DNA of 64,000 bases from Anaerolineales bacterium UBA6092 (GCA_002428565.1 DIXA01000026.1:5435-69434); one strand, 5' to 3'. Numbered from the stretch's first letter, positions 7,341-58,914 are shown. Made by a program: numbers and translations. Notes: generated by a model from the letters alone, not told the origin.

Positions 7341-7370
7341 GACGCTTTCTGGACGCGCCATCCGTACAAT
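7341..7370 (+). promoter_or_regulatory. SARP-box-like promoter of small ORF sp1
   Basis: tGGACGC-tttc-tGGACGC-gccatccg-TACAAT. Two heptamer direct repeats at 11-bp periodicity, with the proximal repeat 8 bp from a -10 hexamer. The ATG at 7382 is only 11 nt after the -10, so the mRNA would be nearly leaderless. Confidence 0.5.
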
Positions 7371-7381
7371 AGGGGCAACGT

Positions 7382-7612
7382 ATGGATGGCGCAAACATTA
7401 CCTCCCCGCAACACACTTTCATCGTCCGCCTGTGGGCCAACGCCCCAGCGGCCAACGCGCGGCAGTGGCGCGGTTCGGTAGAGCACGTCGCTTCGGGGCA
7501 GCGGTTCTACTTTACCTCGCTAGGAGACCTGGAGGGTTTCATTGCGCGGCAGTTGAAGTCTTCATCCGCTCATGCCAAAGATCCATTCCCCGTCCAAGGA
7601 GGCAGCCCCTAA
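7382..7612 (+). CDS. small conserved hypothetical protein sp1 (FIVRLW...WRG...SGQ...L..FI motif)
   Basis: 76-aa ORF. Aligns by eye with the ORFs at 58623-58841 and 50570-50680, which occupy the same position after a regulator. Its own SARP-box promoter lies upstream. Confidence 0.6.
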   Translation: MDGANITSPQHTFIVRLWANAPAANARQWRGSVEHVASGQRFYFTSLGDLEGFIARQLKSSSAHAKDPFPVQGGSP

Positions 7613-7706
7613 ACAACACATCCCAGACCTGACCCATGCCGGCCTCACCCCCGGCGCCCCACCCACCAACCCATTCATTATTCAAAGAAAGAAAGGATCA
7701 AAAACC

Positions 7707-8777
7707 ATGCAGCATAAAAAAATCACCCTCATCAGCACCCTGATCATCATCCTCTTCCTGGGCGTCACCGCAGCCGCCGCCCAAACCGGCAGCCAGCCCA
7801 ACAACCCGCAGGGCGCCTTGCACACCAACTTCACCTACCAGGGCTATGTGACCGACCAGGCCGGCGCACCGCTCCACGACGAATGCGACATCCGATTTGG
7901 CCTGTGGGATGCCATCTCGGACGGCACCCAGATTGGCGCGTACGATGATAACAACAATGGCGTTCAAATCAGCGACGGCTACTTCACCGTCTCGGTCAAC
8001 GATGGCAACGAGTTCGGCAGCACAGCCTTCAATGGCGATGCGCGCTACTTGAGCGTTAGCTTTTCTTGCACCGATTTCCAAGAGACGCTTTCGCCGCGCC
8101 AGGCGCTCACCGCGGTGCCGTATGCGGTATATGCCCTGAACATCCCCGAGCACAACCACCTGGGCGAGGTGTGGCAGGGTGCCGCCCCCGGCCTCACCGG
8201 GCTGTCCATCATCAACGAGAGCATTGCCGGAGTGGGTCTGTTTGTAGCCGGCCCCGGCGGTGAAACCGGCCGCGCCATCGCCGCTTCGGGCGGCATCTAC
8301 AGCAACGCGGACTCTGAGCTGTATCTCAGCCCGCACACAGCCGTGCAAATGATGAACAATGATCTGACCTTTACATTCACTTCTTATGGCAGAGTCAAGG
8401 CTGTGCCCCCCAGCTCGGATGGAGCCTCCCGGTACATTTCCATCCCAGTGTCTACCTTTGGCACGCTATATGGGACGGACGTGTACGTCAAATCCATGGA
8501 GATCTGCTACCAGATCACCAATACAGGCCCGGCTTTCATCACCAGCGTGGGCATGTACCAGAACAACAATACAAACGCGATTACTCTCCTGGAAGACAAC
8601 ACCGACCGCAGCAGCACCACGCTGGAATGCTTCACCGTCACCGCGGCTGACCGCCTGCCAATCGAGAACTCGAGCTTTGTGCAGATCGTGCTCGACTCGG
8701 ACGGGGCCGATGCCGGCGAAGACGGCGTGGTCATCGCCACCGTCAAGCTGACCCTGACCAATGCTTCGGGCCATTAA
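7707..8777 (+). CDS. secreted tail-fibre-like or adhesin-like protein
   Basis: ATG at 7707 follows gaaagga. Signal peptide MQHKKITLISTLIIILFLGVTAAAAQ. Motifs FTYQGYVTD...FGLWDA...LSPRQALTAVPYAVYA and EHNHLGEVWQG, as seen in fibre-like surface proteins (from memory). Confidence 0.7.
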   Translation: MQHKKITLISTLIIILFLGVTAAAAQTGSQPNNPQGALHTNFTYQGYVTDQAGAPLHDECDIRFGLWDAISDGTQIGAYDDNNNGVQISDGYFTVSVNDGNEFGSTAFNGDARYLSVSFSCTDFQETLSPRQALTAVPYAVYALNIPEHNHLGEVWQGAAPGLTGLSIINESIAGVGLFVAGPGGETGRAIAASGGIYSNADSELYLSPHTAVQMMNNDLTFTFTSYGRVKAVPPSSDGASRYISIPVSTFGTLYGTDVYVKSMEICYQITNTGPAFITSVGMYQNNNTNAITLLEDNTDRSSTTLECFTVTAADRLPIENSSFVQIVLDSDGADAGEDGVVIATVKLTLTNASGH

Positions 8778-8793
8778 CCCAAAGGAGCCCACC

Positions 8794-9093
8794 ATGAAAC
8801 AATTTCCCAGGCGAACGCTCTTGCTCCTCCTGCTGTGCATCTTCTTGCTGCTGCTGGGAACCGGTGCAGCCTATGCCGGAGTGACCGCAGCCGAGATCCC
8901 CTGGTGGACGGTTGACGGCGGCGGCGGGCGCAGCACTTCCACCCACCTTGTGCTGAACGGCAGCATCGGCCAGTTTGATGCCGGAAGCATGTCCAGCAGC
9001 CACACCTATCTCTATGGCGGCTACTGGGTGCCGGGCGGCGAGCCAGGCGAAACAATCTACCGGGTGTTCCTGCCGCTGACCACCAAGCAGTAG
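8794..9093 (+). CDS. small secreted protein with duplicated Gly/Ser motif and C-terminal FLPLTTKQ tail
   Basis: Signal peptide MKQFPRRTLLLLLLCIFLLLLGTGAAYA. Half-repeats are GGGGRSTSTHLVLNGSIGQFDAG and SMSSSHTYLYGGYW. Ends in VFLPLTTKQ. Confidence 0.7.
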   Translation: MKQFPRRTLLLLLLCIFLLLLGTGAAYAGVTAAEIPWWTVDGGGGRSTSTHLVLNGSIGQFDAGSMSSSHTYLYGGYWVPGGEPGETIYRVFLPLTTKQ

Positions 9094-15737: not shown

Positions 15738-15826
15738 TCCGAAAATTATGGGGGTGTGGGTGTTTGGCGGGGCGCAGCCCCGCCAAACACCCACCTCTCC
15801 CCCAATTTCCGGATAGGTTCTAAGGG
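15738..15826. repeat. about 85-bp quasi-palindromic repeat, copy 1
   Basis: tccgaaaattatgggggtgtgggtgtttggcggggcgcagccccgccaaacacccacctctcccccaatttccggataggttct. The inverted near-identical copy is at 16863-16951. Confidence 0.7.
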
Positions 15827-16159: not shown

Positions 16160-16801
16160 TTATAGATGCATCTCCTTCTCCAGGCGAAAGGCAGCTGGTA
16201 AAAGTTCACCATATCCCTGCAGACTTTCTCGCAGGCGCAGGCGGGCGCGAGCCAGGCGGCTCTTGACCGTGCCCAACGGCACGCGCACAACACTGGCCGC
16301 TTCACGGTAGTTCATGCCTAAAACATCCACCAGCACAACCATAGTGCGGAAGTCTATGGGCAGGGCGTTCAGGCAGCGCTGGATGGCGCGTTCGAGTTCA
16401 GCCGCCTCAAATTGATCTTCCGGCAATAAACCCGGATCGGCCAACCAGGGCGGAGTTTCTATTTCCTCGCCATCATCATTGGCAGGCTCAAGCGCCACCA
16501 TAGGATGGCGCTTTTGGCGGCGCAGTTCATCGTAACAGGCATTGGTAACAATGCGCATCAGCCAGGCTCTGAGGGAGCCGCCGCGAAAATGATGCATGCT
16601 GCGATAGGCCGAACAGAAAGCCTCTTGTGTGGCGTCGTCGGCAAGTTCATGGTTGCCGAGAATACGCAGGGCAACGTTGAAAAGAGAATCCTGATGGGTT
16701 AAGACAAGATGGTTGAAAGAGTCCAGGTCGCCGGGCTGGGCATCAAGGATAAGCATCGGATTTGTGGAGAGTACCTGTTCTTGATAGATTAACTGATCCA
16801 T
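16160..16801 (-). CDS. ECF-type RNA polymerase sigma-70 family factor
   Basis: Region 2 is FNHLVLTHQDSLFNVALRILGNHELADDATQEAF...LRAWLMRIVTNACYDELRR. Region 4 is NYREAASVVRVPLGTVKSRLARARLRL. ATG 16801 (MDQLIYQ) is preferred, because the upstream ORF extension runs through the palindromic repeat. Confidence 0.85.
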   Translation of the reverse strand: MDQLIYQEQVLSTNPMLILDAQPGDLDSFNHLVLTHQDSLFNVALRILGNHELADDATQEAFCSAYRSMHHFRGGSLRAWLMRIVTNACYDELRRQKRHPMVALEPANDDGEEIETPPWLADPGLLPEDQFEAAELERAIQRCLNALPIDFRTMVVLVDVLGMNYREAASVVRVPLGTVKSRLARARLRLRESLQGYGELLPAAFRLEKEMHL

Positions 16802-16862: not shown

Positions 16863-16951
16863 ACTTTAGAACCAATCCGGAAATTGAGGGAGAGGTGGGT
16901 GTTTGGCCGGGCGTAGCCCGGCCAAACACCCACACCCCCAGAATTTTCGGA
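16863..16951. repeat. about 85-bp quasi-palindromic repeat, copy 2 (inverted), in the sigma-gene leader
   Basis: By eye, the reverse complement matches 15738-15826 at most positions. Lies between the SARP-box promoter (16967-16996) and the sigma start codon. Confidence 0.7.
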
Positions 16952-16966: not shown

Positions 16967-16996
16967 AGTATAAGGATCTAACGTCTCAAAAGCGTC
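16967..16996 (-). promoter_or_regulatory. SARP-box-like promoter upstream of the ECF sigma gene
   Basis: Minus strand reads GTGACGC-tttt-GAGACGT-tagatcct-TATACT. Spacing is the same as in the other four boxes. Confidence 0.45.
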
Positions 16997-17051
16997 ACAT
17001 ACGCCACAATACCGATTCTCGTCAGGGCAATTGCATCTTTTCGATCGTCTC

Positions 17052-18731
17052 TCACCGGAAAATCAAAGGCAAGAGAACAGTGTGGGTGTACACAGGTGGT
17101 TCAGTCTCTAGCGCCAGAATGCTGGCCGCCCATAAGATGCAATCGGGCGAGTTATTGTCTCCGAGCGGATCGTTGGAGATGGTGGTGGTAGCGTCGGGTT
17201 CGACAATCAAGCCGCTCACATCGAATCTCAATGTGGCCCAAAAATCGCCGTCCACCCCATTGAATACACCGTTGGCGATATTCTGACCCTCAAAGGAAAT
17301 GCTGCCATCGTCCCACTGCGTCTGCCCGTCTCCAATGAGATAAGTGATGTGGACCTGTGCAACAGGCTGATCGGCCGTAAAGGGGCCCAGGAGATCTGAA
17401 AAGGTACTGGTCACCAGGTCAAGGGTCACCGCGCCATCATGAATGATCACGGTGCGGAAAAGACCAGGAGCTCTGTAAATCACTACCAGTGATGCACCTT
17501 GCGAGTCGTTGCCACCCGCCAGGTAACTCGGCAGTCCGCTGATCGTGTAATCTCCATTGCCGTCTACCAGGCTGGTTACCTCAGCCCGGTAAACAAAGTT
17601 GGCTGGCGCACCCCAGCAGGTATCTCCTGAGGTGCCAATACGCTGCCCGCTCACGGTATTCCCATCGAACTGCACGTTGGTATACACGTCCGAGCCGCCC
17701 AGAGTGGCCCAGTAAAGGAAGGCTCGCTCCACTTTGCTGTTAACAGGGACACCCGAGAGGTTGATCGTCCCCTGCCCGATTCCGCGCAGGCCCACGCCGG
17801 CTGAGGTCACGTCTCCAAACAGTGTTTGATGGAAGGATTCGGACATCTGGTTGCTCGTTTGCGGGGCGGCAGCCGTTACGGAAAAAATAGTGGCGACCCA
17901 CAACAGGCAGTCTGTCTGGCTGGGGTCGCTCGGATCGCTGTTGCTCAACGTGGTCGCCGCGCTGCTGCCGCTCGTCAGGCTGGTCACATCAAATGTGGGC
18001 GAATCCCAATACAATCCATCTTCTTCGGAGAATGCCCCGCTCGCCAGTAGCGTTTCGTTGAAGGTGGCGTTGTCTCCATCCCACTCGGCCTGCCCATCGC
18101 CCACCAGATAGGTGACCTGCGCATTGTCTACGGGAGAACTGGCTGTAAACCCGCGGATGGTGTTGGTATAACTTGTGGGATCAAAATTGAGGGCCACCGC
18201 GCCATCATTGATCACAATGGTGGTCAGCGGGGCAGTGCTCTGACGGTAGACCACTACCAGGGATGCCCCCTGAGAGTCATTGCCTCCAGCCAGGTTGCCT
18301 GGCAGCCCGGCTATTGTATAGATTCCGTTACCGCCCACCAGATTGGTTACATTGGCGCGGTACACAAAATTATTCTGTACACCCCAACAAGTGTCACCCG
18401 TAGTGCCGATTAACTGTCCGGCAGCGGGCTGGCCGTTCAGGGTTGGCTGCATGTACGTGTTGGCGAAGCCCAGCGTTGCCCAATAAAGATAGGCCTGGTA
18501 AATGCTGGCTCCGATCGGAACGCCGGTCAGGTTGATCTGCCCGCTGCCAACCCCGCGCAGGCCCACCCCTGCATCCGTTACACCGCCATACAGGGTAAAT
18601 ACCTGAAACTGCCCCAGAGCGTTATTTCCGCTTGAAATCTGCTGTGCTGCTGCCAAAGGCGCATGCCCAAGCAGGGCAATCAACAGAGATAGCCCTGCAA
18701 CAATCGTTAGCCAATGATTTAATCGTTTCAT
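17052..18731 (-). CDS. secreted protein made of two tandem ~270-aa homologous modules (possibly DUF3344-like); C-terminal LLPLIFR tail
   Basis: Signal peptide MKRLNHWLTIVAGLSLLIALLGHAPLAAAQ. Both halves carry GVGLRG.G.G.INL.GVP...YLYWATLG...GDTCWG...NFVYRA.VT.LV.GNG.YTI.GLP..LAGGNDSQGASLVV.YR. Ends in VLLPLIFR. Confidence 0.75.
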   Translation of the reverse strand: MKRLNHWLTIVAGLSLLIALLGHAPLAAAQQISSGNNALGQFQVFTLYGGVTDAGVGLRGVGSGQINLTGVPIGASIYQAYLYWATLGFANTYMQPTLNGQPAAGQLIGTTGDTCWGVQNNFVYRANVTNLVGGNGIYTIAGLPGNLAGGNDSQGASLVVVYRQSTAPLTTIVINDGAVALNFDPTSYTNTIRGFTASSPVDNAQVTYLVGDGQAEWDGDNATFNETLLASGAFSEEDGLYWDSPTFDVTSLTSGSSAATTLSNSDPSDPSQTDCLLWVATIFSVTAAAPQTSNQMSESFHQTLFGDVTSAGVGLRGIGQGTINLSGVPVNSKVERAFLYWATLGGSDVYTNVQFDGNTVSGQRIGTSGDTCWGAPANFVYRAEVTSLVDGNGDYTISGLPSYLAGGNDSQGASLVVIYRAPGLFRTVIIHDGAVTLDLVTSTFSDLLGPFTADQPVAQVHITYLIGDGQTQWDDGSISFEGQNIANGVFNGVDGDFWATLRFDVSGLIVEPDATTTISNDPLGDNNSPDCILWAASILALETEPPVYTHTVLLPLIFR

Positions 18732-18783
18732 CTCATTTTCTCCTTATGCTTGGGGGTGCTGTTAGAGCCAGATAGATGTTTAT

Positions 18784-19620: not shown

Positions 19621-19626
19621 GCGGTA

Positions 19627-22578: not shown

Positions 22579-22640
22579 TCAGCACACACTTTTCATAAGC
22601 TATCCAACTGCCCAAAGCCTGCCCGACATTGACTGAACCT

Positions 22641-23753: not shown

Positions 23754-23764
23754 GAGACACCTCC

Positions 23765-24436: not shown

Positions 24437-24466
24437 AGTATAGTAAGCAAGCGTCTCAAAAGCGTC
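24437..24466 (-). promoter_or_regulatory. SARP-box-like promoter of the sortase/C25 operon
   Basis: Minus strand reads GAGACGC-tttt-GAGACGC-ttgcttac-TATACT, about 229 nt upstream of the start codon at 24208. Confidence 0.45.
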
Positions 24467-45075: not shown

Positions 45076-45163
45076 AAAATAAAAATCCTTCCGTTGGTAG
45101 ATCAGTGACAAAACGACCTGATCTTACCCCCTTTCGGGTCAAAATCCGGTCAATAATCCACCT

Positions 45164-45195
45164 GGCGGTGTCAAGAAAGCGTCAAGACGAAGACC
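45164..45195 (-). promoter_or_regulatory. weak SARP-box-like candidate upstream of kimA
   Basis: Minus strand reads TTGACGC-tttc-TTGACAC-cgccaggt-GGATTA. Repeat spacing is correct but the -10 is poor. Confidence 0.2.
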
Positions 45196-47291: not shown

Positions 47292-47357
47292 CTCATTCAC
47301 CTTTCTCATTGCTGATTTTTGGGGTTGATAGGCAGATACCGTGGCAGCCTGTAAATT

Positions 47358-47394
47358 GGGGGTATTTTTCGGGCAAAGCCCGAAAAATACCCCC
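47358..47394 (-). terminator. 17-bp perfect-stem hairpin between the two PbH1 genes
   Basis: gggggtatttttcgggc aaa gcccgaaaaataccccc. Confidence 0.4.
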
Positions 47395-47412
47395 ACAGAA
47401 CTCTCATAGAGC

Positions 47413-49188: not shown

Positions 49189-49274
49189 TTGATTTTCTCC
49201 TTGGTTTGTTTTTGAGATAGTTTTTTTGTACGCACTCTGTGCGAAGAACCGCCAACTTGCTCGCAAAACCTGCC

Positions 49275-50513
49275 TCAGCGCCTGCCCACATACGGGATCC
49301 AAACCCGGAGGTAAGCCGGGCTGCCGGTCACAGGCTGGTCACTTTTGGCGTAGCAGATATCCATATCTGTACCGTCGTCATCGTAGTAAACCACATGCAC
49401 ATATCCGGCCCCATCCAGCGCAACGGCAGCATCGTTCCATGCCAGCAGCGCTTCCTGATTCGTGGCCGAAGCAACCATATGCTGGCTCCATGATCCGCCC
49501 AGATTATTGGCGTAATAGATGTAGTACTTCGAATCAAAATATTCATAGACGATGTGCGCCTTACCGCTGCGATCGACCAGGATGGATGGATTGGAATTGA
49601 TCATATCGCTCGCCACCACAGTAAACGCCCACGCGCCGCTCGCATTTGTGGCATAACCGATCCGGTAACCTTCCATACTCGTGATGCCCATGGCAATATG
49701 CGCCTTGCCGTTCTCATCCAGGGCCAGCGAGGGGTGTTCGTGGCTGGCGCTCATATCGGCAGCCACCTGGCTGAAATACCAGTTGCCGCCGCTGTACAAC
49801 GCGATCCAAACGTCTTCCACATACGTGGATGCGTTGCTGCGCTGAAAAGCAACCTGGATCTGCCCGGCTTTGCTGATCTGCAACGAGGGATAACGATCAT
49901 AGGTAGCATCATCGTCTGCTACAATCAGAGTGACCCAACCACCGCTGATCGACTGGGTAAGGCTGCCCTCCTGGTAACGGATCTGGAGATCATAATCCCC
50001 GCCGCCATCCAAAGTGTCATGGTAAGTGTGGTAAGCGATGTACGCATGACCGGTGCCATCCAGTGCCATACTGAGGTGCAAAGCCCAGGTAGCAGGGATG
50101 TACCCATTCCCCGCCAACTCACCCACCCACGCGCCGCTGGCATTGGTTGCGTAGTAGATATTCATCGTCAGAGGAGGGGTTGAAGAGTCGGGCACATGCA
50201 AATACGCCACATGCGCCGCACCGCTGCTATCCACCAGAATGGTGGGGCGGTAGTTATCATCTGCAGGAATGGAAATCAACGTTGCAGACCAGGAGCCGCT
50301 GGCGTTGGTGGTATAGTAGATATCGCCGCCACTCTCGTAAGCCACATGCGCATGGCCAGCGTTGTCTACGGCGATCGTGGGCGATGTGTCATCGATAAGA
50401 TTGTTCGTCACCCGCACCGGCAAGAACGATACGCCATTTTGCGCCCAAGCCTCTGGTAAGGTTGGCACCAGGGTCAATACAAGAATACATGCCATGATCA
50501 CAATCGATTTCAT
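49275..50513 (-). CDS. secreted beta-propeller-like repeat protein; C-terminal VWIPYVGRR tail
   Basis: Signal peptide. About 7-8 repeats of the form P.i.vD..G.AHvaY......iyYATNASG.W. Confidence 0.75.
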   Translation of the reverse strand: MKSIVIMACILVLTLVPTLPEAWAQNGVSFLPVRVTNNLIDDTSPTIAVDNAGHAHVAYESGGDIYYTTNASGSWSATLISIPADDNYRPTILVDSSGAAHVAYLHVPDSSTPPLTMNIYYATNASGAWVGELAGNGYIPATWALHLSMALDGTGHAYIAYHTYHDTLDGGGDYDLQIRYQEGSLTQSISGGWVTLIVADDDATYDRYPSLQISKAGQIQVAFQRSNASTYVEDVWIALYSGGNWYFSQVAADMSASHEHPSLALDENGKAHIAMGITSMEGYRIGYATNASGAWAFTVVASDMINSNPSILVDRSGKAHIVYEYFDSKYYIYYANNLGGSWSQHMVASATNQEALLAWNDAAVALDGAGYVHVVYYDDDGTDMDICYAKSDQPVTGSPAYLRVWIPYVGRR

Positions 50514-50569
50514 CAGTTTCTCTCCCTTTATATTTTTATTTCAGCACCCAAACATCGGGTTACTCTAAA

Positions 50570-50680
50570 CCGTCTGTCCACTTCTCCATAAACGCCAGCA
50601 GTTCATCCACCCGCCGCACCCAGATCATCTCTCCACTGCTGGCATGCTGCACCCATCCCTGCCATCCAATCTAGATAGCA
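50570..50680 (-). pseudogene. 5'-truncated third copy of the small conserved ORF (sp3)
   Basis: Reads WQGWVQHASSGEMIWVRRVDELLAFMEKWTDGLE*, which aligns with WRGSVEHVASGQRFYFTSLGDLEGFIARQL of sp1. The FIVRLW N-terminal part is missing. An in-frame TAG lies at 50681-50683. Confidence 0.55.
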
Positions 50681-50689
50681 GTTTATCAA

Positions 50690-50721
50690 AGGCCTGTCTC
50701 TCAAATGTCTCAACGGATAAG
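50690..50721 (-). promoter_or_regulatory. SARP-box-like promoter retained in front of truncated sp3
   Basis: Minus strand reads GAGACAT-ttga-GAGACAG-gcctttga-TAAACT. Spacing and -10 are the same as the sp2 box. Confidence 0.45.
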
Positions 50722-50751
50722 TGGAAATCGCTACCTTGGGCTCATTTTCTG

Positions 50752-50835
50752 CTCTCGCGCGCGTGTACATCAGAAACGACTTCCTGCAGCGCCGCCAGGT
50801 CGCACTTGACCGTTGCCCGAGAGAAAATCGATGAA
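50752..50835 (-). pseudogene. remnant homologous to the 3' end (DeoR-like HTH) of reg2
   Basis: Reads ...SRATVKCDLAALQEVVS..., compared with reg2 ...SQATVKRDLAALRAAG. The DNA stretch gccaggtcgcacttgaccgttgcc matches gccaggtcgcgtttgaccgttgcc at about 58994-59017. Confidence 0.5.
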
Positions 50836-50840
50836 TCACC

Positions 50841-50871
50841 ACGCATCCCGAATCTAATGTTCGGGATGCGT
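50841..50871 (-). terminator. 12-bp stem hairpin downstream of the giant gene
   Basis: acgcatcccgaa tctaatg ttcgggatgcgt. Confidence 0.4.
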
Positions 50872-50933: not shown

Positions 50934-53900
50934 TTATCCGCGCTGTTTGGCCCGCCTCCGCCACAGTAGCCCGGCCCCTGCCAGGGCAGCCACGCAGATC
51001 GCTGCCAGTCCATACGACGGGAGAGGCGCAGCGCTGGCCCGGAATGCCACCAATGTCACCGCCGTCGGAACAGAGGTTGCAATGCCCCACTCCGAGAAGG
51101 CCGTCACATTGCCGGCACACACCAGGTTGTCTGTGGTCGAGCTGCTGGCTGAGCGCTCCAGGCATTCCCATTGCGTGCCCGTCCAGCGGCACAGGCGCAA
51201 TTCGCTCTCGTTCAGGCTACCCACCTGTCTCTGGTCGTAGTACAGGCACATCTCGCTCAGCGTCCAACCTGTTCCCACCGCCTCCAACTCGTAGTAACGG
51301 CCCAGCATCGTGCTGGGGGCGTTGGGGTGCGGGGCGTTGGGATGCCCGGTGATCCAGATCTCGCTCAAGCTGCCCCGCGTTCCCACGTTGCCCTTATTAG
51401 CCGATTCGCCCAGTTGGTGCCAGCCCAGCCCAGGGATGGGCTGGCGGGCCTGGCTGGCTGCGCGCAGATCGTTCTCGCTGCGTGCGTTGAAGGGCGGCGA
51501 GAACCAGCGGCCCGTCCAGGGCAGCGGGTCGCGGCCCACCAGGCGCACGCGCCAGTGATAGACCTGCCCCAGGTCCAGGCGGATCGGCTGGGCGAACATC
51601 TCAGCCCCGTTGAGCGTGGTATCCCCCCACACCGCGCTGGTTACCAACCCCGTGCCATCGAAAGGCTGGTAGAAAGGCTTGATCTCCCATTGCAGCATCA
51701 CCTGGCCGCGCCCAAAAGGCGACCGCCCCAGCAGATTGATACGGAAGGCCCCAGCAGGCGGAGTGGTCATTCCCATCGGGCCGATCGGCTCGCTGCCATC
51801 GTAGGTATACTGGCGTGGCTTCACATCGGGATGCTCACCGCCGTTGCCGTAATACAGGTAAATGGCTCCCTGGTCTGTTCCCTCGCCGTCCCATAGCGGC
51901 ACCGCTGCCAGCACATCGCTGTAGCCATCGCCGTTCACATCCCCCGCGCTGCCCACGCTGAAGCCGTATTGCGCATTGGTCTCACCGCCGCTGCCGGCCT
52001 GCCAGTCGGGCTGGATCTGCCCGTACCCCAGCCCGGCGCCTTTGAGGCCCTTGGCCGAGCCGTAGTACACGTAGGCCTGACCGCTGTCGTTATAGCCTGC
52101 ATCATCATAGAGCCGCGCCCCGATGAGCACGTCTGAGAACCCGTCCCCGTTCACATCCCCGGCGCTGCTCACCGCATTGCCCAGTTTGGCATTCACCTGG
52201 TCGGCGGGGTCGGCGTACCAGTTGGCGCTGGCTGCCAGCCCACTGGCCGAGCCGTGGAAGACATACGCCCGGCCTTCGTCGGCCCCCAGCCCGGTATCAT
52301 AGTCTGGTGCGCCAACGATCACGTCCGAGTAACCGTCCCCGTTCACATCCCCCGCTGTGTCCACCGACCAACCGGTGTGAGCGTGATCCTGATCGGCCGT
52401 AGCCCCCCAGTTCGGGCTGGTCCAGGCGCTCAGCCCCATGGAGCTGCCATAGTACGCCAGTACGGCTCCCGCATCGGTGGCTGCCGGGCTGGTATTGTCG
52501 GCATAGGGGATGCCGACGAGGATGTCTGCATAGCTATCGCCGTTGACATCGCCGGCGCTGCCCACTGCATAACCGTAAGCGGCACCGGCCTGGGTGTAGA
52601 GGCCAAACCAATCGGCGCCGCTGGCTTGCGGGGTCAGGCCGGTGGCCGAACCGTGGTACACAACCGCTGCGCCGCTGTCTGCCAGGCTCATATCCACGAA
52701 ATCGTAGTAAGGTGCCCCGATGATCACCTCGCTGTACCCGTCGCCGTTGACATCCCCCGCGCTGCCCACCGACCAGCCCCATTGTGCATTCGTCTGGTCA
52801 GGCGAGGCCGGGTCGAGCATCCAATCGGCGCTTGTGCTCAGCCCACTGGCTGAGCCGTGATAGACGTAGACGCGGCCGGTTTGGTTGCCAGCTGACCCGT
52901 AGCCCGGTGCCCCAATGATCACATCGCTGTACCCGTCGCCGTTCACATCCCCCGCTGTACCCACCGACCAGCCCAATTTGGCGCCGTTATTGTTGATGGG
53001 CGCGGTCTCCCAATCAGGCGTTGCGCTCAACCCGCTGTCTGAGCCGTGGAAAACGTAGGCCTTGCCCTCCGGCTCGATGCCGGGGTTGTAATTGTATGCC
53101 CCGATGATCACATCCGAGTAGCCGTCGCCGTTCACATCCCCTGCGCTGGCGACCGAGAAGCCAAAGTAAGCAAAATTTTGGAAATCGGGATTGAAGAGCA
53201 GCTCGGAGGTGGTGGAAAGCCCCCCCGGCGCCCCGTAGAACAGGTAGGCGCGGCCATCATAATCAAACTCAGCATGGTAATCGGGCGCGCCTGCGATCAC
53301 ATCCGAGAATCCGTCGCCATTCACATCGCCCGCAAAGCCCACTGCCACGCCAAAGTGCGCATTGTCTTGCTCGGCGGGGTCAGCGATCCAATCCGGGTGA
53401 GCCCCCAGCCCGCTGGATGAGCCGTAGTAGAGATACGCCCGGCCCTCATCGGGGTGCTGGAGGTCCAACCAGGGCGCGCTGATGAGCACATCGGCATAAC
53501 CATCGCCGTTGACATCCCCGGCTGTGCTGCTCGACCAGCCGAAGTTAGCGCCGTAAACCCCGGATTCCGTTGTGGGGTGGGCAAACCAGCTGGGCGAGCC
53601 AAAGGAGGCTGGCCCACTGGCCGAGCCGTGAAAAACATAGGCGATTCCCTCGCCGCCGAACATGCCCGGCGAGCCGATCAGCACATCACTGTAGCCGTCG
53701 CCGTTCACATCGCCGGCTGTGCCCACGCTCAGCTCGCGGCTGCCCGTCGGTGAGCCATACCAGCCCCACAGCGCCGTGTAAACCAATCCGCTGGCCGAGC
53801 CCTGGTAGAGGATCGCCGCGCTGGTATAGGTAGAAAAGCCGCCTCCCGGTGCACTGGCGATCACATCGGCGTAACCGTCACCGTTCACATCGCCCGCGCC

Positions 53901-56900
53901 GCCCACGGCTCTGCCTAGCGCGGCGCTGCTCTTGTTGTAAGGGTCATCGAAAGAGGGCTGCGATTCAAAGCCTGTGGCGTTGCCGTAGAAGATATAGATG
54001 CGCCCTTCCTCGTAGTATCCCCCGCCCGAATAAGCCGGCGCGCCCACAATGATATCGCCATACCCGTCGCCATCCACATCGCCCGCTCCGCTCACTGCAT
54101 AGCCAAATTGCGCCCGCGCCCCCGGCCCGGCCGGGTCGGTCTTGACCCAATTCGGCGTGGCGGAGAGGCCGCTGGCTGAACCAAAGTACACGTACACGGC
54201 CCCATCTCCCAGGGAATCTCCGTTATCATCATAGTTGAGCGCGCCCACCACCAGATCACTATAACCGTCGCCGTTCACGTCTCCGGCGGTGCTGGCCGAA
54301 TGCCCGAAGCATTCACTGTCATATTCGGGTGAGCCTGTGCCGTGCCAGGCGGGGATCAGGCCAGGCCCGCCTGCCCCACCATGATAGACGTATACTCCCA
54401 CGCCGCAGGTGACGTGATATTGGTTCCATGCACTCACAAACACATCCGCGTAACCGTCGCCGTTCACATCGCCTGCTGTGCCCACCGCATAACCGTTGCC
54501 CGAGAGATCGCCGTTGGCCGGGTCACCAACCCATACCGGTGATGCCTCTGCGGTCAGGCCGTTGGGAGCGCCGTAGTACAGGTAAATGCGCCCCTCATTG
54601 CCATAGCCTGAGCCAACCCGATCGAAATAGGGCGCGCCGATAAGCACATCTGTGTACCCATCTGCGTTGAGATCCCCCGCCATGGACACCCCCATGCCAA
54701 ATGCAGCCAGGTTCTGGTTGGTTGGGTCGGCCTGCCACGCTGGAGTGACCGAAAGCCCTCCCGGCGCGCCCATGTAGACGTAAGCCCGCCCCTCATAGAC
54801 ATCGCCGCTTTCGTCTCGGTAACCGTAAGCATCTGAAGAGCCCACGATGACATCGTCATACCCATCGCCGTTCACATCGCCGGCCCCGTCGATGGAAAAA
54901 CCCACATGTGCGTAGTTCTGCGGCTCGGGTGAGACAGCCCAGGCTGGCATGGTGGGGGCGCTGCTGCCGCCATGGAAGACGAAGACCCGCCCCATTTCCG
55001 TGTGGCTGCCACCATAATACGGTGCGCTGACGATCACATCCGCGTAGGAGTCGCCGTTCACATCTCCCGCGGAGGCCACCACATAGCCAAAGTTGGCATG
55101 CGCCTGTTGCGGGTTGGCCACCAGGATCACCCATTGGCTGTTGGCGGGGCCAGAGGCTGAGCCGCGATAGATATAGCCTGCTCCCTGCAAGATTTGCCCG
55201 GCCAGATCCTTATAAGGCGCACTCACGATGATATCATCATAGCCATCGTGATCCATATCTCCTGCGTTGCTCACCGACCAGCCAAAGCGCGCCCCGGCCT
55301 GGTCAGTAGGGTCGAGTTCCCAATTGGGAACAACGGATAAACCCAGCGCCGAGCCAAAATAGACCAGCGCTTTGCCTTCGGTCGCCGCGGCATCGCTGTA
55401 ACCCGGCGCGCCGATGAGGATATCCGCAAAGCCATCGTCGTTCACATCCCCGGCTGTGCTGGCTGAGCGCCCAAACTCAAGCAGATCCTGGTCGATGGGG
55501 CTGTTTCCCCAGGCCGGCTTCCAGGTCAGGCCGCTGGGCGAGCCATAATACACCATCGCCATGCCCTGGTCCGTGTGCAAGGCGGTATCAAAGCCCGGCG
55601 CGCCCACGATCAGGTCGTCATAGCCGTCGCCGTTCACATCCCCGGCGCTTTCCGCCGCGCCCCCAAAGTAGGCGTAATCCTGGTCGCTGGGGTCCACATA
55701 CCAGGTTTCGCCGGCTGGAGGAAGCAGGCCGTGGGGTGAGCCATAGTATGCGAAGACGCGCCCCTCATCGCTGACGCTGGCATCGTAGCTGTAAGCGCCG
55801 CCCACCACATCAACATAGCCATCGCCGTTGAAGTCGCCGGCGGAGGCCGACAAGCCAAAGCCAGAATCATCCTGATCGCTGGGGTGGAGTTGGGCCTCGG
55901 CGGTTAGCTCGCACCACGGCCCGTGGGTATAGATCGTGACCTCCAGCACAGACAAGAAACCCTCCTGAGGCATGAAACCGGCCAGGTTTGTGCGGTAACC
56001 GCCCACTAAGATTTCGCCATCCCCGTCGCCATCAGTATCGCCTGCCGGAGAGACCCACTGCCCCATCTGGCTGCCGGCCTGTTCGTAGGGGTTCAGCGCG
56101 CAGAACTGCACTTCGTCGAGACCTCCCAGGGAGGGGAACACATAAAGGCGGCCTTCATCCCAGTAAATGCTGTCATCATATTTGGGCGCGCCAACCACCA
56201 CGCCTAAGTGGGTTGCCGGATCGATGGCGCTAACCGTCGCGCCGAACTGCGCATCGTCCTGATTGGTGGGGTCTGCCCACCAGTAAGGCGTTGTTTCCAG
56301 GCCGCTGTTGCTCCCGCTGTACACATACACCCGGCCTTCGCCGCTGTTTTCGCCCGAGTAGCCCGGCGCGCCGATGATCACATCCGGGCGCCCTGCATCT
56401 GGGGCTGCTGTCTGGCCGTACACGCGGATATCGTCCAGGCCAAAACTGTCTCCATCCAGGCCGTGGTACTCCCAGGCCAGGCGGATGGATTGGCCCGCGT
56501 AGGCCGAGAGATCGACGGATACCATGCGATACGCAAAGGAGGACCAATTTTCATCCGCAATCATATCCCACAGCGTATCGGTGTAAGCCTCACTGGCCTC
56601 GATCGCATAGAGCGTCACCGTCGCGCCAGGGTATAGCGTATCGCCTTTCGCCCAAAATTCGAGCGTGGTGGATAGAACGTCCGTTGTTACGGTAAAAGCC
56701 GGGCTGAGCAGCCATTCACTTTGCGTAATGACCGCGTCATAGTTCACCCAACCGGCAAAACTACCCGAATGGGCATCTCCTGCACCAGCAAGCATCCACT
56801 TTTTCAGTGAGGCGCTGAAGCTGCGCGTTTCCCATGCGCTGGGGGGCATCAGCCCTGCCTCGAAGCCCTGCTCCCACAGCGCAATGGTGCGGGGGAGGTC

Positions 56901-58601
56901 CTGGTCTGCGTTCCCCGCCGCCGCCAGCGAGGCGCCAAAGGCCGCGTTCGCCTGGTCGGTGGGGTCGGCTTGCCAATCTGGCGCGGCGTCTGGCGCGCCC
57001 AGCCCGCCCAGGAACAGGTAAGCCGCCCCTTCCCCGGTGTAATACGGCCCATAACCCGGCGCGCCGACCATGAAGTCGTCGAATGTGTCGCCATCCACAT
57101 CGCCCACCCCGGCTACCGCCTCGCCAAAATGCCCATCCGACTGATCGGTTGGGTGCGCCGGCCACCCAGAGGCGAGGCTTGGCCCAGTCGAGCTGCCAAG
57201 ATAAAGATACGCTGCTCCTTCTCCAATAGAGGTATCGCTGAACCCCGGCGCGCCGACCAGAAAATCGGCAAAGCCATCCTTGTTGGTGTCGCCGGCTCCG
57301 GCCACCGCCCAGCCAAACTGTGCCCCGTCCTGGTCGGTGGGGTCGAGTTCCTGGTAAGGCGGCGAGACAATGCCGGTCGCGCCGCCCCGGTACAGGAAAA
57401 CGCGCCCTTCTACAATGGCTCCTGTATCAAATAAGGGCGCCCCCACGAGCACATCATCGTAGCCATCCCCGTCCACATCGCCGGCGCTGGCGACCGAGGC
57501 GCCAAACCAGGCGCCAGAATGGCCGTAACCATCCACCTGCCAGTCATGGCTTTGATTGAGCGCTGGCGTAGGCCCGCTGGCCGAGCCGTGGTAGACGTAA
57601 ACCCGCCCCTCATCGACATGGCCGTTATCGTAACCGGATGCGCTGACGGTCATATCATCGTAGCCATCGCCGTTGACATCTCCGGCCCTGTTGACCACCA
57701 TCCCAAAATAGGCATCGGTCTGCTCGGTGGGATCGATCGCCCAGGGCCAGGTGAAAATGGGATCGACGGTGATCGGCAGGCTGGCTGATGCGGTCTCGAC
57801 CGTGATGCGCAGGATGTAACCTCCGCCTTCTGCCTCGAGTTCCAGCCAGGCAGGCAGCGTCATCCCATTGGCGTCGAAAGCCTGCAAGCCCTCGTAACGG
57901 ATGGGGATGGCGCTTTCTGGCGCATAGAATTCCAGTATCTGGCTGCTCGCCAACCGCGGGCTCAGTGCGGTGGTCAGCGCCAATTCCAACGTGAGCGCCG
58001 TTGCCTCGGCTGTGGCACCCTGGGGCAGCTCACTGATCGTAAAACCTTGCTCCAGCCCTGCCGCATCGTTGATATACCACTCACTGATCCCAGCCGGGTA
58101 GGTGTATTCGATGCGGTTCTCGTTCACGATCGTATGCGTTGGCTTTCCGATGGGCTGGATTGCCCCCTGCAAGCCAAAACCTGCCAGCGCAAGGTTGACT
58201 TCCCAGGCGTTCGCATGTATTTCCGCAACGCGCGGGGTCAGCCGCAGGCCCTGCGGCCCGAAAGTTGCGCGCAGGTTCTGCGCCCGATTGGGCGCGGCAT
58301 AGCTGCTCGGCTCGATTTGCGTAAAGCGATATTCAGAGGCCTCGATATACGCTGTGGCTTGGGCATACCAATCCGATTGTTCGAGCGCAGCCGGGTCAAG
58401 GACACCATCTCCAGCCACGGCTGGGGTGGCTGGAGCAGCCTTGACCAGCCTGCCCGGCTTGTATGCGCTGCTTTGCCACCGCGCGGGTGCGGCCCCCGCC
58501 AGGCCAGCCGGAACCAGGCTGGTCAGCACCAGCGCCAATAGCACGGCTGCTCGGATCACAAAGGCAATAGCTTGTTGATAACGTCGAATCGATGTATACA
58601 T
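50934..58601 (-). CDS. giant (2555 aa) FG-GAP/integrin-alpha-like repeat surface protein with an inserted lectin-like (choice-of-anchor-J-like) domain and a C-terminal LPSYG + TM + RRR anchor
   Basis: Signal peptide. Roughly 30 repeats (hand count) of AGDVNGDGY.DV..GAP......G.ayv..Gs..Gl. The insert is WEQGFE...SEWLLSPAF...VDLSAYAGQSIRLAWEYHG...LDDIRVYG. C-terminus is PLPSYGLAAICVAALAGAGLLWRRRAKQRG. Confidence 0.9.
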   Translation of the reverse strand: MYTSIRRYQQAIAFVIRAAVLLALVLTSLVPAGLAGAAPARWQSSAYKPGRLVKAAPATPAVAGDGVLDPAALEQSDWYAQATAYIEASEYRFTQIEPSSYAAPNRAQNLRATFGPQGLRLTPRVAEIHANAWEVNLALAGFGLQGAIQPIGKPTHTIVNENRIEYTYPAGISEWYINDAAGLEQGFTISELPQGATAEATALTLELALTTALSPRLASSQILEFYAPESAIPIRYEGLQAFDANGMTLPAWLELEAEGGGYILRITVETASASLPITVDPIFTWPWAIDPTEQTDAYFGMVVNRAGDVNGDGYDDMTVSASGYDNGHVDEGRVYVYHGSASGPTPALNQSHDWQVDGYGHSGAWFGASVASAGDVDGDGYDDVLVGAPLFDTGAIVEGRVFLYRGGATGIVSPPYQELDPTDQDGAQFGWAVAGAGDTNKDGFADFLVGAPGFSDTSIGEGAAYLYLGSSTGPSLASGWPAHPTDQSDGHFGEAVAGVGDVDGDTFDDFMVGAPGYGPYYTGEGAAYLFLGGLGAPDAAPDWQADPTDQANAAFGASLAAAGNADQDLPRTIALWEQGFEAGLMPPSAWETRSFSASLKKWMLAGAGDAHSGSFAGWVNYDAVITQSEWLLSPAFTVTTDVLSTTLEFWAKGDTLYPGATVTLYAIEASEAYTDTLWDMIADENWSSFAYRMVSVDLSAYAGQSIRLAWEYHGLDGDSFGLDDIRVYGQTAAPDAGRPDVIIGAPGYSGENSGEGRVYVYSGSNSGLETTPYWWADPTNQDDAQFGATVSAIDPATHLGVVVGAPKYDDSIYWDEGRLYVFPSLGGLDEVQFCALNPYEQAGSQMGQWVSPAGDTDGDGDGEILVGGYRTNLAGFMPQEGFLSVLEVTIYTHGPWCELTAEAQLHPSDQDDSGFGLSASAGDFNGDGYVDVVGGAYSYDASVSDEGRVFAYYGSPHGLLPPAGETWYVDPSDQDYAYFGGAAESAGDVNGDGYDDLIVGAPGFDTALHTDQGMAMVYYGSPSGLTWKPAWGNSPIDQDLLEFGRSASTAGDVNDDGFADILIGAPGYSDAAATEGKALVYFGSALGLSVVPNWELDPTDQAGARFGWSVSNAGDMDHDGYDDIIVSAPYKDLAGQILQGAGYIYRGSASGPANSQWVILVANPQQAHANFGYVVASAGDVNGDSYADVIVSAPYYGGSHTEMGRVFVFHGGSSAPTMPAWAVSPEPQNYAHVGFSIDGAGDVNGDGYDDVIVGSSDAYGYRDESGDVYEGRAYVYMGAPGGLSVTPAWQADPTNQNLAAFGMGVSMAGDLNADGYTDVLIGAPYFDRVGSGYGNEGRIYLYYGAPNGLTAEASPVWVGDPANGDLSGNGYAVGTAGDVNGDGYADVFVSAWNQYHVTCGVGVYVYHGGAGGPGLIPAWHGTGSPEYDSECFGHSASTAGDVNGDGYSDLVVGALNYDDNGDSLGDGAVYVYFGSASGLSATPNWVKTDPAGPGARAQFGYAVSGAGDVDGDGYGDIIVGAPAYSGGGYYEEGRIYIFYGNATGFESQPSFDDPYNKSSAALGRAVGGAGDVNGDGYADVIASAPGGGFSTYTSAAILYQGSASGLVYTALWGWYGSPTGSRELSVGTAGDVNGDGYSDVLIGSPGMFGGEGIAYVFHGSASGPASFGSPSWFAHPTTESGVYGANFGWSSSTAGDVNGDGYADVLISAPWLDLQHPDEGRAYLYYGSSSGLGAHPDWIADPAEQDNAHFGVAVGFAGDVNGDGFSDVIAGAPDYHAEFDYDGRAYLFYGAPGGLSTTSELLFNPDFQNFAYFGFSVASAGDVNGDGYSDVIIGAYNYNPGIEPEGKAYVFHGSDSGLSATPDWETAPINNNGAKLGWSVGTAGDVNGDGYSDVIIGAPGYGSAGNQTGRVYVYHGSASGLSTSADWMLDPASPDQTNAQWGWSVGSAGDVNGDGYSEVIIGAPYYDFVDMSLADSGAAVVYHGSATGLTPQASGADWFGLYTQAGAAYGYAVGSAGDVNGDSYADILVGIPYADNTSPAATDAGAVLAYYGSSMGLSAWTSPNWGATADQDHAHTGWSVDTAGDVNGDGYSDVIVGAPDYDTGLGADEGRAYVFHGSASGLAASANWYADPADQVNAKLGNAVSSAGDVNGDGFSDVLIGARLYDDAGYNDSGQAYVYYGSAKGLKGAGLGYGQIQPDWQAGSGGETNAQYGFSVGSAGDVNGDGYSDVLAAVPLWDGEGTDQGAIYLYYGNGGEHPDVKPRQYTYDGSEPIGPMGMTTPPAGAFRINLLGRSPFGRGQVMLQWEIKPFYQPFDGTGLVTSAVWGDTTLNGAEMFAQPIRLDLGQVYHWRVRLVGRDPLPWTGRWFSPPFNARSENDLRAASQARQPIPGLGWHQLGESANKGNVGTRGSLSEIWITGHPNAPHPNAPSTMLGRYYELEAVGTGWTLSEMCLYYDQRQVGSLNESELRLCRWTGTQWECLERSASSSTTDNLVCAGNVTAFSEWGIATSVPTAVTLVAFRASAAPLPSYGLAAICVAALAGAGLLWRRRAKQRG

Positions 58602-58622
58602 CTTATCCTCCGAATGATGGTT

Positions 58623-58841
58623 TTACTTCAATCCCGGGCGTTTTTCCCCGGACGGATTGTCTCGCTGGCTTTGATTTTGAATGTATTCCAATAATTCCGC
58701 GGCATCCAGGATGGCCACGGTTTGCCCGTTAAGCACATCCTGGATCTGGCCGCGCCACTCGGTGCCGCCCGGCCTTTCTTGCCACACCCGTAAGATAAAA
58801 ACCCTGCGCTCTGGCGTCACTTGAGTCAATGAACCGGTCAA
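58623..58841 (-). CDS. small conserved hypothetical protein sp2 (FILRVW...WRG motif)
   Basis: TTG at 58841 lies 5 nt after GGAGG. Reads LTGSLTQVTPERRVFILRVWQERPGGTEWRGQIQDVLNGQTVAILDAAELLEYIQNQ... It is 21 nt upstream of the giant gene. The 251-aa tracked ORF upstream of this point overlaps reg2 out of frame. Confidence 0.6.
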   Translation of the reverse strand: MTGSLTQVTPERRVFILRVWQERPGGTEWRGQIQDVLNGQTVAILDAAELLEYIQNQSQRDNPSGEKRPGLK

Positions 58842-58882
58842 ATTGGCCTCCAATAAACAAAAACTGGTACCGTATCGATACC

Positions 58883-58914
58883 AGTTTAGCAAATGGCTGT
58901 CTTTGGATTGTCTC
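58883..58914 (-). promoter_or_regulatory. SARP-box-like promoter of the sp2 / giant-gene operon
   Basis: Minus strand reads GAGACAA-tcca-AAGACAG-ccatttgc-TAAACT, between the reg2 stop (58945) and the sp2 start. Confidence 0.45.

Follow-up and report, generated by a model that had tools for sequence, protein, structure and literature searches.

Tandem heptamer boxes beside large SARP-type regulators in an Anaerolineales genome, and their counterparts in other phyla

Background

A 64,000-nucleotide stretch of DNA from Anaerolineales bacterium UBA6092 (GCA_002428565.1, DIXA01000026.1:5435-69434; 'the window' below means this whole stretch) carries several intergenic sites, or 'boxes', at which a heptamer is directly repeated after 4 bp and followed, 8 bp further on, by a -10-like hexamer. 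The same stretch carries two large genes, reg1 and reg2, whose products resemble regulators belonging to the family of Streptomyces antibiotic regulatory proteins (SARPs), and small open reading frames (ORFs), designated 'sp', that begin shortly after some of the boxes. Are these repeats the binding sites of SARP-type regulators and, if such is the case, which regulator reads which box? An earlier note, made from the sequence of the window, had listed five boxes, had likened them to SARP sites, and had tentatively shared them out in two classes between reg1 and reg2.

A SARP site is made up of direct repeats of a heptamer, in classical units of 11 bp that overlap the -35 element of the target promoter (PMC10972967). 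In the case of AfsR, the proximal of the direct repeats is 8 bp from the -10 and overlaps a mis-spaced -35; at afsS the spacer between -35 and -10 is over-long, at 20 bp (PMC11301090). The boxes of the window reproduce each geometric feature reported for SARP sites. We estimate at roughly 78% the probability that SARP-family regulators of the STAND (signal transduction ATPases with numerous domains) type bind them in tandem through their OmpR-type winged-helix domains, a reading drawn from sequence and comparison.

Results

Boxes in the window

The five boxes listed earlier, with their geometry of two heptamers 4 bp apart and a -10 hexamer 8 bp away, are all present in the sequence, except that site 5 was placed 10 nucleotides off, at 50690-50721 (Table 1). 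The tally was incomplete: a search with the site 3 repeat, 3 mismatches being permitted, brought out a sixth box of identical geometry, site 6, which had been overlooked. The 7-4-7-8-hexamer layout is exact at all six sites. The pattern GACR-N7-GACR-N9-TAHAMT, built from these sites, has 5 exact matches in the window, compared to 0.01 expected from 100 dinucleotide shuffles; with the -10 loosened to TANNNT, the number of matches is unchanged and 0.04 are expected. A looser expression, GAC-N8-GAC-N9-12-TANNNT, gave 7 matches in the 128 kb made up by both strands, namely the six sites and one near kimA. All 7 are intergenic, and each is oriented toward the next gene. The earlier note had singled out the frequency of boxes inside coding DNA as a point that could speak against it; all boxes of the window are intergenic and none lies in coding DNA, the non-coding share of the window being 9%.

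A canonical -35 element was not found at any of the six sites: at spacers of 16-18 nt, TTGACA is matched at 0 or 1 of its six positions. The best -35-like hexamers are located 20-22 nt from the -10, within the distal heptamer. A scan with the sigma-70 consensus detected no promoter at sites 1 and 4. It should be noted that site 5 cannot be counted as independent of site 4, since it belongs to a remnant duplicate of the module formed by the 3' end of reg2, the box and an sp gene.

Table 1. Features of the window, in order of position, and boxes found after reg2-clade genes in other genomes
Feature	Position	Strand	Description
reg1	3688-7188	+	Large SARP-type regulator; Pfam Trans_reg_C 26.2 bits, BTAD 80.7, AAA_16 102.7, TPR
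Hairpin	7212-7269	+	Perfect, 25-bp stem, 100% complementary; between reg1 stop and box 1
Site 1, class A	7339-7370	+	TGGACGC (7339-7345) tttc TGGACGC (7350-7356) N8 TACAAT (7365-7370); before sp1
sp1	7382-7612	+	76 aa; ATG 11 nt past -10; predicted mRNA essentially leaderless
ECF sigma gene	16160-16801	-	Putative site 2 target; Pfam Sigma70_r2, r4_2; NCBIfam sigma70-ECF
Site 2, class B	16967-16998	-	GTGACGC tttt GAGACGT N8 TATACT; upstream of ECF sigma gene
Site 3 operon	17052-24208	-	LPXTG protein, Ice_binding-like, Peptidase_C25, sortase, DUF3344
Site 3, class B	24437-24468	-	GAGACGC tttt GAGACGC N8 TATACT; upstream of sortase operon
Site 6, class B (new)	28089-28120	-	GTGACGC tgtt GAGACTC N8 TACACT; faces PerM-like remnant and BrkB/YihY gene (26914-28050)
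reg3 pseudogene, 5' remnant	28134-28396	+	Divergent from site 6; frameshift, ~11-codon internal deletion, truncated at ~90 aa
Remnant module	50560-50846	-	Last ~30 codons of a reg2 paralogue (50742-50846, '..ATVKCDLAALQ..'), intact class C box, truncated sp3 (50560-50652, 30 aa)
Site 5, class C	50680-50711	-	GAGACAT ttga GAGACAG N8 TAAACT; before truncated sp3
sp2	58623-58841	-	72 aa; TTG start, GGAGG ribosome-binding site
Terminator-like hairpin	58861-58887	-	12 pairs, then T-run (terminator scan); 5' arm includes site 4 -10
Site 4, class C	58883-58914	-	GAGACAA tcca AAGACAG N8 TAAACT; before sp2 and FG-GAP gene
reg2	58945-62817	-	Large SARP-type regulator with extra C-terminal HTH; BTAD 95.0 bits, AAA_16 89.9, TPR_12
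L056 (= L006 sequence)			After reg2 orthologue (38-41% identity): GAGACGC tttc GAGACGC N8 TAAACT
L057/L058			After reg2-clade gene: GAGAGAG x2, TATACT
L059			After reg2-clade gene: AAGATAG/AAGATAC, CAAACT, then sp2-like ORF

The two regulators

The two regulators have a domain order in common: an OmpR-type winged helix-turn-helix (wHTH), BTAD (PF03704, cut-off 22.1 bits), AAA_16 and TPR, the Pfam families matched by the last part being TPR_12, TPR_2 and TPR_MalT. The additional HTH of reg2, in residues 1206-1289, matches a DUF1670/DeoR-like family of Pfam. Among the Pfam families with E <= 0.01, NB-ARC had no match in either protein, the ATPase being called as AAA_16, and neither protein matched the Pfam receiver domain Response_reg. 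A phmmer search of the PDB returned AfsR (8k60, 8jke, 8hvr) and EmbR (2fez) as the closest solved sequence relatives; residues 11-311 of reg1 align to both with E of about 1e-10, and positions 28-342 of the NCBIfam AfsR model align to residues 3-316 of reg2. Against the AfsR equivalog NF053617, reg1 scored 85.6 bits and reg2 94.4 bits, far under the cut-off of 1430, which places both among the large-SARP-type proteins and not among AfsR orthologues. The window thus encodes two SARP-domain regulators, as had been claimed. The reg1 ORF opens at 3688, and its conserved start is probably the ATG at 3706; the hairpin between reg1 and box 1 is probably the reg1 terminator.

Recurrence of the layout beside SARP-like genes

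Metagenomes were scanned with an alignment of reg2, which gave 57 loci (286 kb) selected by regulator homology alone and therefore unbiased for the box (L-numbers are labels of loci in other genomes). A generic detector was applied to them, in which the heptamer repeat had to agree at 6 of 7 positions or more with an 11-bp period, N8 and TANNNT, whatever the heptamer itself. It found 25 sites, 11 of them perfect repeats, compared to 9.3 +/- 3.1 in shuffles (maximum 16), and most of these sites adjoin the regulator gene. The heptamers differ from one regulator to another (GTCACGT, TAGGCGA, GTGATGC and TTGACGA, among others). Full-length genes of the reg2 clade are likewise followed by the 7-4-7-8-hexamer layout with heptamers of their own (last rows of Table 1).

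An alignment of the N-terminal domains was consistent with this: clades of regulators correspond to box type, and the recognition helices read 'SNLRRHLHQLQ' in class A regulators, 'ASLRNTLDHLQ' in class B regulators and 'RRYLTQALWQL' in reg2. With the geometry constant and the heptamers specific to the regulator, the box sequence appears to co-evolve with the protein. This is the strongest in silico evidence that SARP-type proteins would bind the boxes.

A second scan started from the box, using the pattern GACGCTTTYKRGACG-N9-TANAMT on one genome per species for 185,579 species (36 bits, for which our own arithmetic predicts about 17 chance matches). It gave 46 sites in 45 loci, some 29 of them from Chloroflexota. 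A tblastn search found a homologue of reg1 or reg2 within the 8-kb locus at 28 of the 46 sites, including sites in Lachnospiraceae, Oscillospiraceae, Trueperaceae and Ca. Velthaea. The genes of the window are 66-88% identical to those of Chloroflexota (Anaerolineae/Anaerolineales) metagenome-assembled genomes (MAGs) that carry such boxes.

Two side observations concern the more distant sites. In Lachnospiraceae (L015, L016, L022, L034), a SARP-like gene is found between two boxes, one of which reads TTGACGC tttt TGGACGT N8 TATAAT; one Lachnospiraceae box precedes a 510-aa gene whose N-terminus resembles what we take to be histidine ammonia-lyase. In Deinococcales (L010, L013, L027, L046), a repeat identical to that of class B (see below), ttGAGACGC tttt GAGACGC, stands before a small cytochrome-c-like secreted protein; a regulator was absent within 8 kb of these boxes.

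Class A boxes follow reg1

The sites recovered by the box scan split cleanly into two sub-classes, named A and B. Class A, tt TGGACGC ttty TGGACGC N8 TAnAAT, was found at 17 distinct sites in other genomes, with identical heptamers (one ends TGGACGG) and a variable N8 spacer. Wherever a reg1 orthologue is visible (40-77% identity), the class A box lies 23-131 bp 3' of it on the same strand; this order, orthologue then box, was seen in at least 12 genomes. The box mostly stands directly before an sp gene, with the ATG 6-13 nt past the -10, which supports TAnAAT as a working -10 and would make these mRNAs leaderless.

The converse search, started from sp1, led to the same place. All sp1 homologues of 56-92% identity have a box upstream: in L001 it is TGGACGC tttt TGGACGC N8 TAGAAT, with the ATG 6 nt on, a reg1 orthologue directly upstream and FG-GAP genes downstream; L003/L004 have the same type of box with TACAAT as the -10; and L002 has CGGACG repeats of 11-bp period with one additional nucleotide ahead of TACAAT. 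In HGW-Chloroflexi-10, two additional class A boxes lie ahead of large secreted proteins (L007, L026).

Class B boxes accompany a third regulator, reg3

Class B boxes elsewhere read tt GWGACGC tttt GAGACGC (T..tcat) TATACT, a consensus that sites 2, 3 and 6 fit in detail. They are associated with reg3, a SARP-like protein at about 30% identity: in 6 loci the box lies 28-55 bp from the start of a divergent reg3 gene, in L029 the distance is 371 bp, and elsewhere the box is found downstream of reg3. In L116, an intact reg3 of 802 aa (BTAD and AAA_16) has one class B box 33 bp from its start, divergent and also directed toward a Usp gene, and another 162 bp past its stop. Three further class B boxes of this locus, all within 20 kb, precede SOD, HSP70 and glycogen-branching genes. 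This suggests that the class B targets of L116 form a stress-type regulon.

The two-class scheme of the earlier note, GACGC for reg1 and GACA for reg2, did not survive this comparison. Three classes are needed, as the sites before the gene for the extracytoplasmic function (ECF) sigma factor and before the sortase operon are of the form GWGACGC-tttt-GAGACKC and do not belong to the reg1 class. Control of the ECF sigma gene and sortase operon by reg1 is accordingly unlikely, since the reg1 class is elsewhere invariably TGGACGC-ttty-TGGACGC and GWGACGC is found beside the reg3 clade.

Conservation at orthologous loci, which the earlier note had put forward as a check, was found for class B in L113, L114/L115 and L047. 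L113 is fully syntenic with the window and has a box upstream of an ECF sigma gene whose product is 88% identical, as well as a second box between PAP2 and the surface-protein operon. In L114/L115, the box is upstream of the ECF gene (74% identity), and in L047 between the DAGK and Ice_binding homologues. As to the history of this region, L114 has DAGK-PAP2 leading directly into a class B box with the ECF sigma gene behind it. L113 and the window differ in that PAP2 and the ECF gene are separated by the LPXTG/Ice_binding/C25/sortase/DUF3344 operon, which has a class B box of its own. This suggests that the surface-protein operon arrived by insertion, or disappeared, along with a duplicate of the box.

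The reg3 copy next to site 6 is a remnant. By tblastx, it is 70-80% identical to the 5' ends of reg3 in L008, L018, L025, L031, L037, L041 and L050, and the N8 of site 6 (ttcatcat) is identical to that of the reg3-adjacent box of L037. The segment 27960-28600 looks like a rearrangement scar made of four pieces: a PerM-like remnant, site 6, the reg3 pseudogene and a copy of the 3' end of an Aminotran_5 gene. The first is the C-terminal remnant (28050 to about 27960), fused in frame to the BrkB/YihY ORF, of a PerM/AI-2E-like membrane protein that is found at full length in L037 and L047; the last, of 159 bp (28435-28593), is 92% identical to 63163-63321 and to a copy about 3.6 kb past the end of the window.

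Class C: the reg2-sp2 module and its decayed duplicate

Class C comprises sites 4 and 5. Site 4 lies between reg2 and sp2, and the gene of a 2555-aa FG-GAP protein (50934-58601) begins 21 nt after sp2. Just past the stop of this gene is the remnant module that contains site 5, upstream of genes for BNR and beta-helix secreted proteins (45837-50513). Sites 5 and 4 match at 31 of 39 positions; the box and the -10 are the best-kept segment, and the surroundings have diverged. Taken with the reg3 remnant, the decayed reg2-sp3 module suggests a birth-and-death turnover of SARP-sp modules in the region.

The hairpin at 58861-58887 is probably the terminator of reg2, overlapping the sp2 promoter. A hairpin of different sequence occurs at the same position past the regulator stop in L059 (CTGGCGT..ACGCCAG plus T6). 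The predicted sp2 transcription start falls within the hairpin of the window; transcripts from the sp2 promoter would thus start inside it and may escape termination.

The sp small-protein family

The two complete sp proteins of the window, sp1 and sp2, have about 23% identity and the motif W..(x)WRG..(x)V..GQ in common; neither Pfam nor NCBIfam has a family that matches sp. An AlphaFold 2 (AF2) model of moderate quality (pLDDT 72) shows three strands and a helix (beta3-alpha), and Foldseek gave no PDB match to it at E <= 0.001. An exhaustive profile search returned 4078 representative clusters at E <= 1e-3, the clusters being made at 50% identity, and nearly all members are of 60-110 aa. In a few longer members (P0167, P0177, P0219; about 220-230 aa), sp makes up the N-terminal domain and the C-terminal one is a globin (Pfam Globin, E = 1e-10 to 1e-14), a fusion that hints at a signalling or adaptor module.

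An sp-like ORF was present in 23 of the 57 regulator-selected loci, often just 3' of a small SARP gene of about 260 aa. The recurrence of sp-like ORFs beside SARP genes indicates that the two form a conserved two-gene module. It may be added that sp1 had no self-match in the protein collection, whereas sp2 and the ECF sigma protein matched themselves; the leaderless sp1 ORF was seemingly missed by the source gene caller.

Other features of the window

A palindromic element of about 70 bp (GAAAATT.TGGGGGTGTGGGTGTTTGGC.GGGC and its inverse) is present in two opposite copies, 15741-15809 and 16880-16948, which flank the ECF sigma gene. The copy in the 5' untranslated region of this gene belongs to an insertion of some 93 nt, lacking in the syntenic L113, with short CTAA(A)GT repeats at its ends. 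The element looks like a miniature inverted-repeat transposable element or a repetitive extragenic palindrome.

Six or seven predicted secreted proteins have a common C-terminal motif, [ILV][YFL]LP[LIM]x2-7[KR]-COOH (8761-9093, 17052-18731, 19627-22578, 22641-23753, 45837-47396, 47413-49302 and possibly 49275-50513), with endings such as IYLPMMVKK, IYLPMTVKK, LYLPLLGK, LLPLIFR, VFLPLTTKQ and IYLPIVIQNTPER. Several of these ORFs lie in or near the operon that holds the sortase and the Peptidase_C25 protein, and the motif could be a sorting tag. The sole classical LPXTG-like substrate is encoded at 23765-24208 (MPVTGG, transmembrane segment, basic tail).

A candidate before kimA had been offered earlier as a weaker sixth box. 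It does not share the geometry and has a different motif. The region 45121-45185(-) contains four TTGAC repeats at offsets 0/11/32/43 (TTGACGC, TTGACAC, TTGACCG, TTGACCC), the last heptamer being separated from TAAGAT by N9 (TTGACC by 10 nt). The TTGAC motif, the four copies and the different -10 spacing rule it out as a member of classes A to C. Downstream is an operon of a kimA-like K+ transporter, a KdpD-like kinase and an OmpR-family regulator. The repeats may be the site of the operon's own KdpE-like response regulator, or may be a SARP box of the TTGACGA type, as in L101, L105 and L106.

Discussion

A model for the boxes, and what weighs against it

What stood of the SARP-type reading of the earlier note is the promoter architecture, the large-SARP nature of the regulators and the joint travel of boxes and regulators across genomes; the two-class assignment fell. 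By analogy with AfsR, each heptamer would be occupied by one of two adjacent DNA-binding domains, which the 11-bp period would bring to a single face of the helix. As the proximal heptamer ends 8 bp ahead of a -10 of housekeeping type, the bound activator would substitute for the absent -35 and recruit the RNA polymerase holoenzyme, and the AAA/TPR part would probably gate this activity upon a signal. Three regulons can be proposed. Through class A (TGGACGC twice, -10 TAnAAT), reg1 would act on sp1 and the secreted-protein genes behind it. Through class C (GAGACAn / RAGACAG, -10 TAAACT), reg2 would act on sp2 and the giant FG-GAP gene, the decayed duplicate serving sp3 and the BNR/beta-helix genes. 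Class B (GWGACGC tttt GAGACKC, -10 TATACT/TACACT) would define the regulon of the reg3 clade, with the ECF sigma gene, the LPXTG/C25/sortase operon and the BrkB/YihY operon.

Several points weigh against this model. The whole case is built from sequence and its comparison, and both the pattern used in the window, designed post hoc, and that of the genome scan were drawn from the sites themselves. The DNA-binding domain is only marginally recognized by Trans_reg_C, the score of reg1 (26.2 bits) being equal to the cut-off and that of reg2 (18.0 bits) lying below it. The copy of reg3 adjacent to site 6 is a pseudogene, and an intact one was found neither within the window nor in the next 4.8 kb on the right, where the genes are PadR, an MFS gene, an ABC transporter and fragments of aminotransferases. 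In L117, from a more distant genome, the ECF sigma homologue is 70% identical and has no box, which confines the link between class B and the ECF gene to the closer lineage. Class C amounts to one locus, its own decayed duplicate and three relatives with different heptamers. The DNA of the sp2 homologues L051-L053 is nearly identical to the window and so uninformative on selective conservation of this class, and the TAAACT of site 4 lies as well within a terminator-like stem, a double constraint that makes it weaker as independent evidence for a -10.

Alternative explanations

Since the local reg3 is a pseudogene, either an intact reg3 encoded outside the window or reg2 must act at sites 2, 3 and 6. 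The second possibility, that reg2 took over the regulon after the decay of reg3 and now reads the class B sites, is rather unlikely in our opinion, though the most probable of the alternatives. It is plausible in that the reg2 orthologue of L006/L056 is paired with GAGACGC heptamers (GAGACGC tttc GAGACGC N8 TAAACT), so that the clade can go with this sequence, and in that every class B and class C site of the window has GAC at the core of its first heptamer and AGAC in its second. The class B sites, however, match the reg3-associated consensus down to the tttt spacer, the ttcatcat-like N8 and TATACT, while the box proximal to reg2 differs from them at heptamer positions 6-7, in the spacer and in the -10, and the recognition helix of reg2 is unlike that of the reg3 clade. 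A reg3-clade protein acting from outside the window therefore remains our preferred reader of class B.

OmpR-family regulators bind tandem repeats of about 11-bp period that are able to replace the -35, and Pho-box-like sites have the same 7+4 periodicity. One may thus ask whether the boxes belong to a response regulator of the OmpR/PhoB family instead of a SARP. The window does encode such a protein (KdpE-like, 40884-41612), and the side-by-side binding of AfsR resembles that of GlnR and PhoP (PMC11301090). We nevertheless hold this to be very improbable, given that at 28 of the 46 sites, in several phyla and often at 23-131 bp, the boxes co-occur with BTAD-AAA regulators and not with receiver-domain proteins, a KdpE-like match being found in L023 only. 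Moreover, it is with the SARP clade that the heptamer co-varies, and the repeats that do stand beside two-component genes, those of kimA, have another motif (TTGAC) and another spacing.

ECF sigma factors are commonly autoregulated. Class B could then be an autoregulated ECF promoter in which the repeats serve as -35 and -10 elements, and the ECF regulon would consist of the remaining class B genes; the box before the ECF gene in the window, L113 and L114, and the stress-like targets of L116 (SOD, HSP70, Usp), would agree with this. The spacing does not: the repeats are 4 nt apart, and either of them taken as a -35 would be about 10-11 or 19-22 nt from TATACT instead of 16-17. TATACT is a -10 of the housekeeping type, not the CGTC type usual at ECF promoters. 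Class B boxes are, besides, tightly paired with divergent reg3 genes, at the distances given above, and none of the five class B boxes of L116 precedes its ECF gene. An ECF promoter is, if anything, slightly less probable still than a response-regulator site.

The least credible explanation of all is that the repeats are devoid of regulatory function and resemble one another only through duplication or the spread of a mobile promoter cassette. Site 5 does lie within the decayed reg2-sp2 duplicate, site 6 in a rearrangement scar, and repeated palindromic elements are nearby. However, the heptamers are kept where the spacers and flanks have diverged, SARP genes unrelated to one another have beside them the same geometry with unrelated heptamers, boxes occupy orthologous positions in genomes of 66-88% protein identity, and coding DNA contains none.

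Relation to known systems

The closest parallel to the proposed SARP-type control is the AfsR-afsS pair. Both systems combine an OmpR-type DNA-binding domain, BTAD, a STAND ATPase and TPR in the regulator, place the proximal repeat 8 bp from the -10, and have an over-long spacer to the -35-like element (20 bp at afsS, 20-22 nt here). In both, a small ORF of some 60-80 aa comes immediately 3' of the regulator gene, as afsS does after afsR, and is the first target, a putative one in the window. The differences are the host, Chloroflexota (Anaerolineae-like) and not Actinobacteria; the small protein, sp being an uncharacterised family of predicted beta3-alpha fold whose analogy to AfsS is one of gene layout; the predicted leaderless state of sp1; the heptamers; and the downstream genes, which encode giant surface or secreted proteins and not antibiotic pathways.

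Pathway-specific SARPs (ActII-ORF4, DnrI, RedD; PimR-type SARP-LAL) have the same heptameric direct repeats in 11-bp units over the -35 (PMC10972967). They are mostly small SARPs in biosynthetic clusters, whereas no biosynthetic cluster is found here, although many of the sp-paired metagenomic relatives are also small SARPs. The class II sites of PhoB/OmpR (Pho box) likewise consist of 7-bp repeats with a 4-bp spacer on which two winged-helix domains replace the -35, as proposed here. In contrast to these regulators, reg1 and reg2 have BTAD, a STAND ATPase and TPR in place of a receiver domain and phosphorylation switch, and the proximal repeat is 8 bp from the -10. Finally, EmbR of Mycobacterium tuberculosis, the second-best solved relative of reg1 (2fez, E = 1e-10), shares the wHTH and BTAD, but it has an FHA domain where reg1 and reg2 carry AAA and TPR, and it is under the control of a Ser/Thr kinase.

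Activation by SARPs is of a known kind. What is new is its probable occurrence beyond Actinobacteria, where the boxes are conserved and clade-specific and a small protein is the conserved partner. SARPs are commonly regarded as antibiotic regulators of Streptomyces or other actinobacteria. A 2024 review describes SARPs as 'exclusively found in actinobacteria' (PMC10972967), a distribution that does not hold here, the same boxes being found beside SARP-like genes in Chloroflexota, Lachnospiraceae, Oscillospiraceae, Trueperaceae and Ca. Velthaea. The occurrence of the layout beside SARP-like genes in many non-actinobacterial genomes indicates that this promoter logic is much wider than reviews state. 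Among the top-ranked matches of a literature search, none joined 'SARP family' with Chloroflexota terms.

Going further, we tentatively suggest, as a speculation that we would sooner doubt than defend, that a SARP domain and sp make up an ancient and widespread two-gene regulatory module in several phyla, and not an actinobacterial speciality. The regulator would activate the adjoining, often leaderless, sp promoter; sp would act in return on the regulator or link it with a signal, much as AfsS does in the case of AfsR; and regulons of surface, secreted and stress proteins would be wired to the module through clade-specific heptamers.

Conclusions

The comparison indicates that the same promoter grammar may operate in uncultured Anaerolineae and probably also in Deinococcota and Firmicutes. 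In these lineages an ECF sigma factor and operons of surface proteins would be under its control, as would stress genes in relatives. To our knowledge, Chloroflexota have almost no experimentally defined transcription-factor sites, and the clade-specific heptamer 'codes' can be used to predict regulons in their MAGs. The analysis also flags sp, a large unannotated family of small proteins, as a conserved partner of SARPs.

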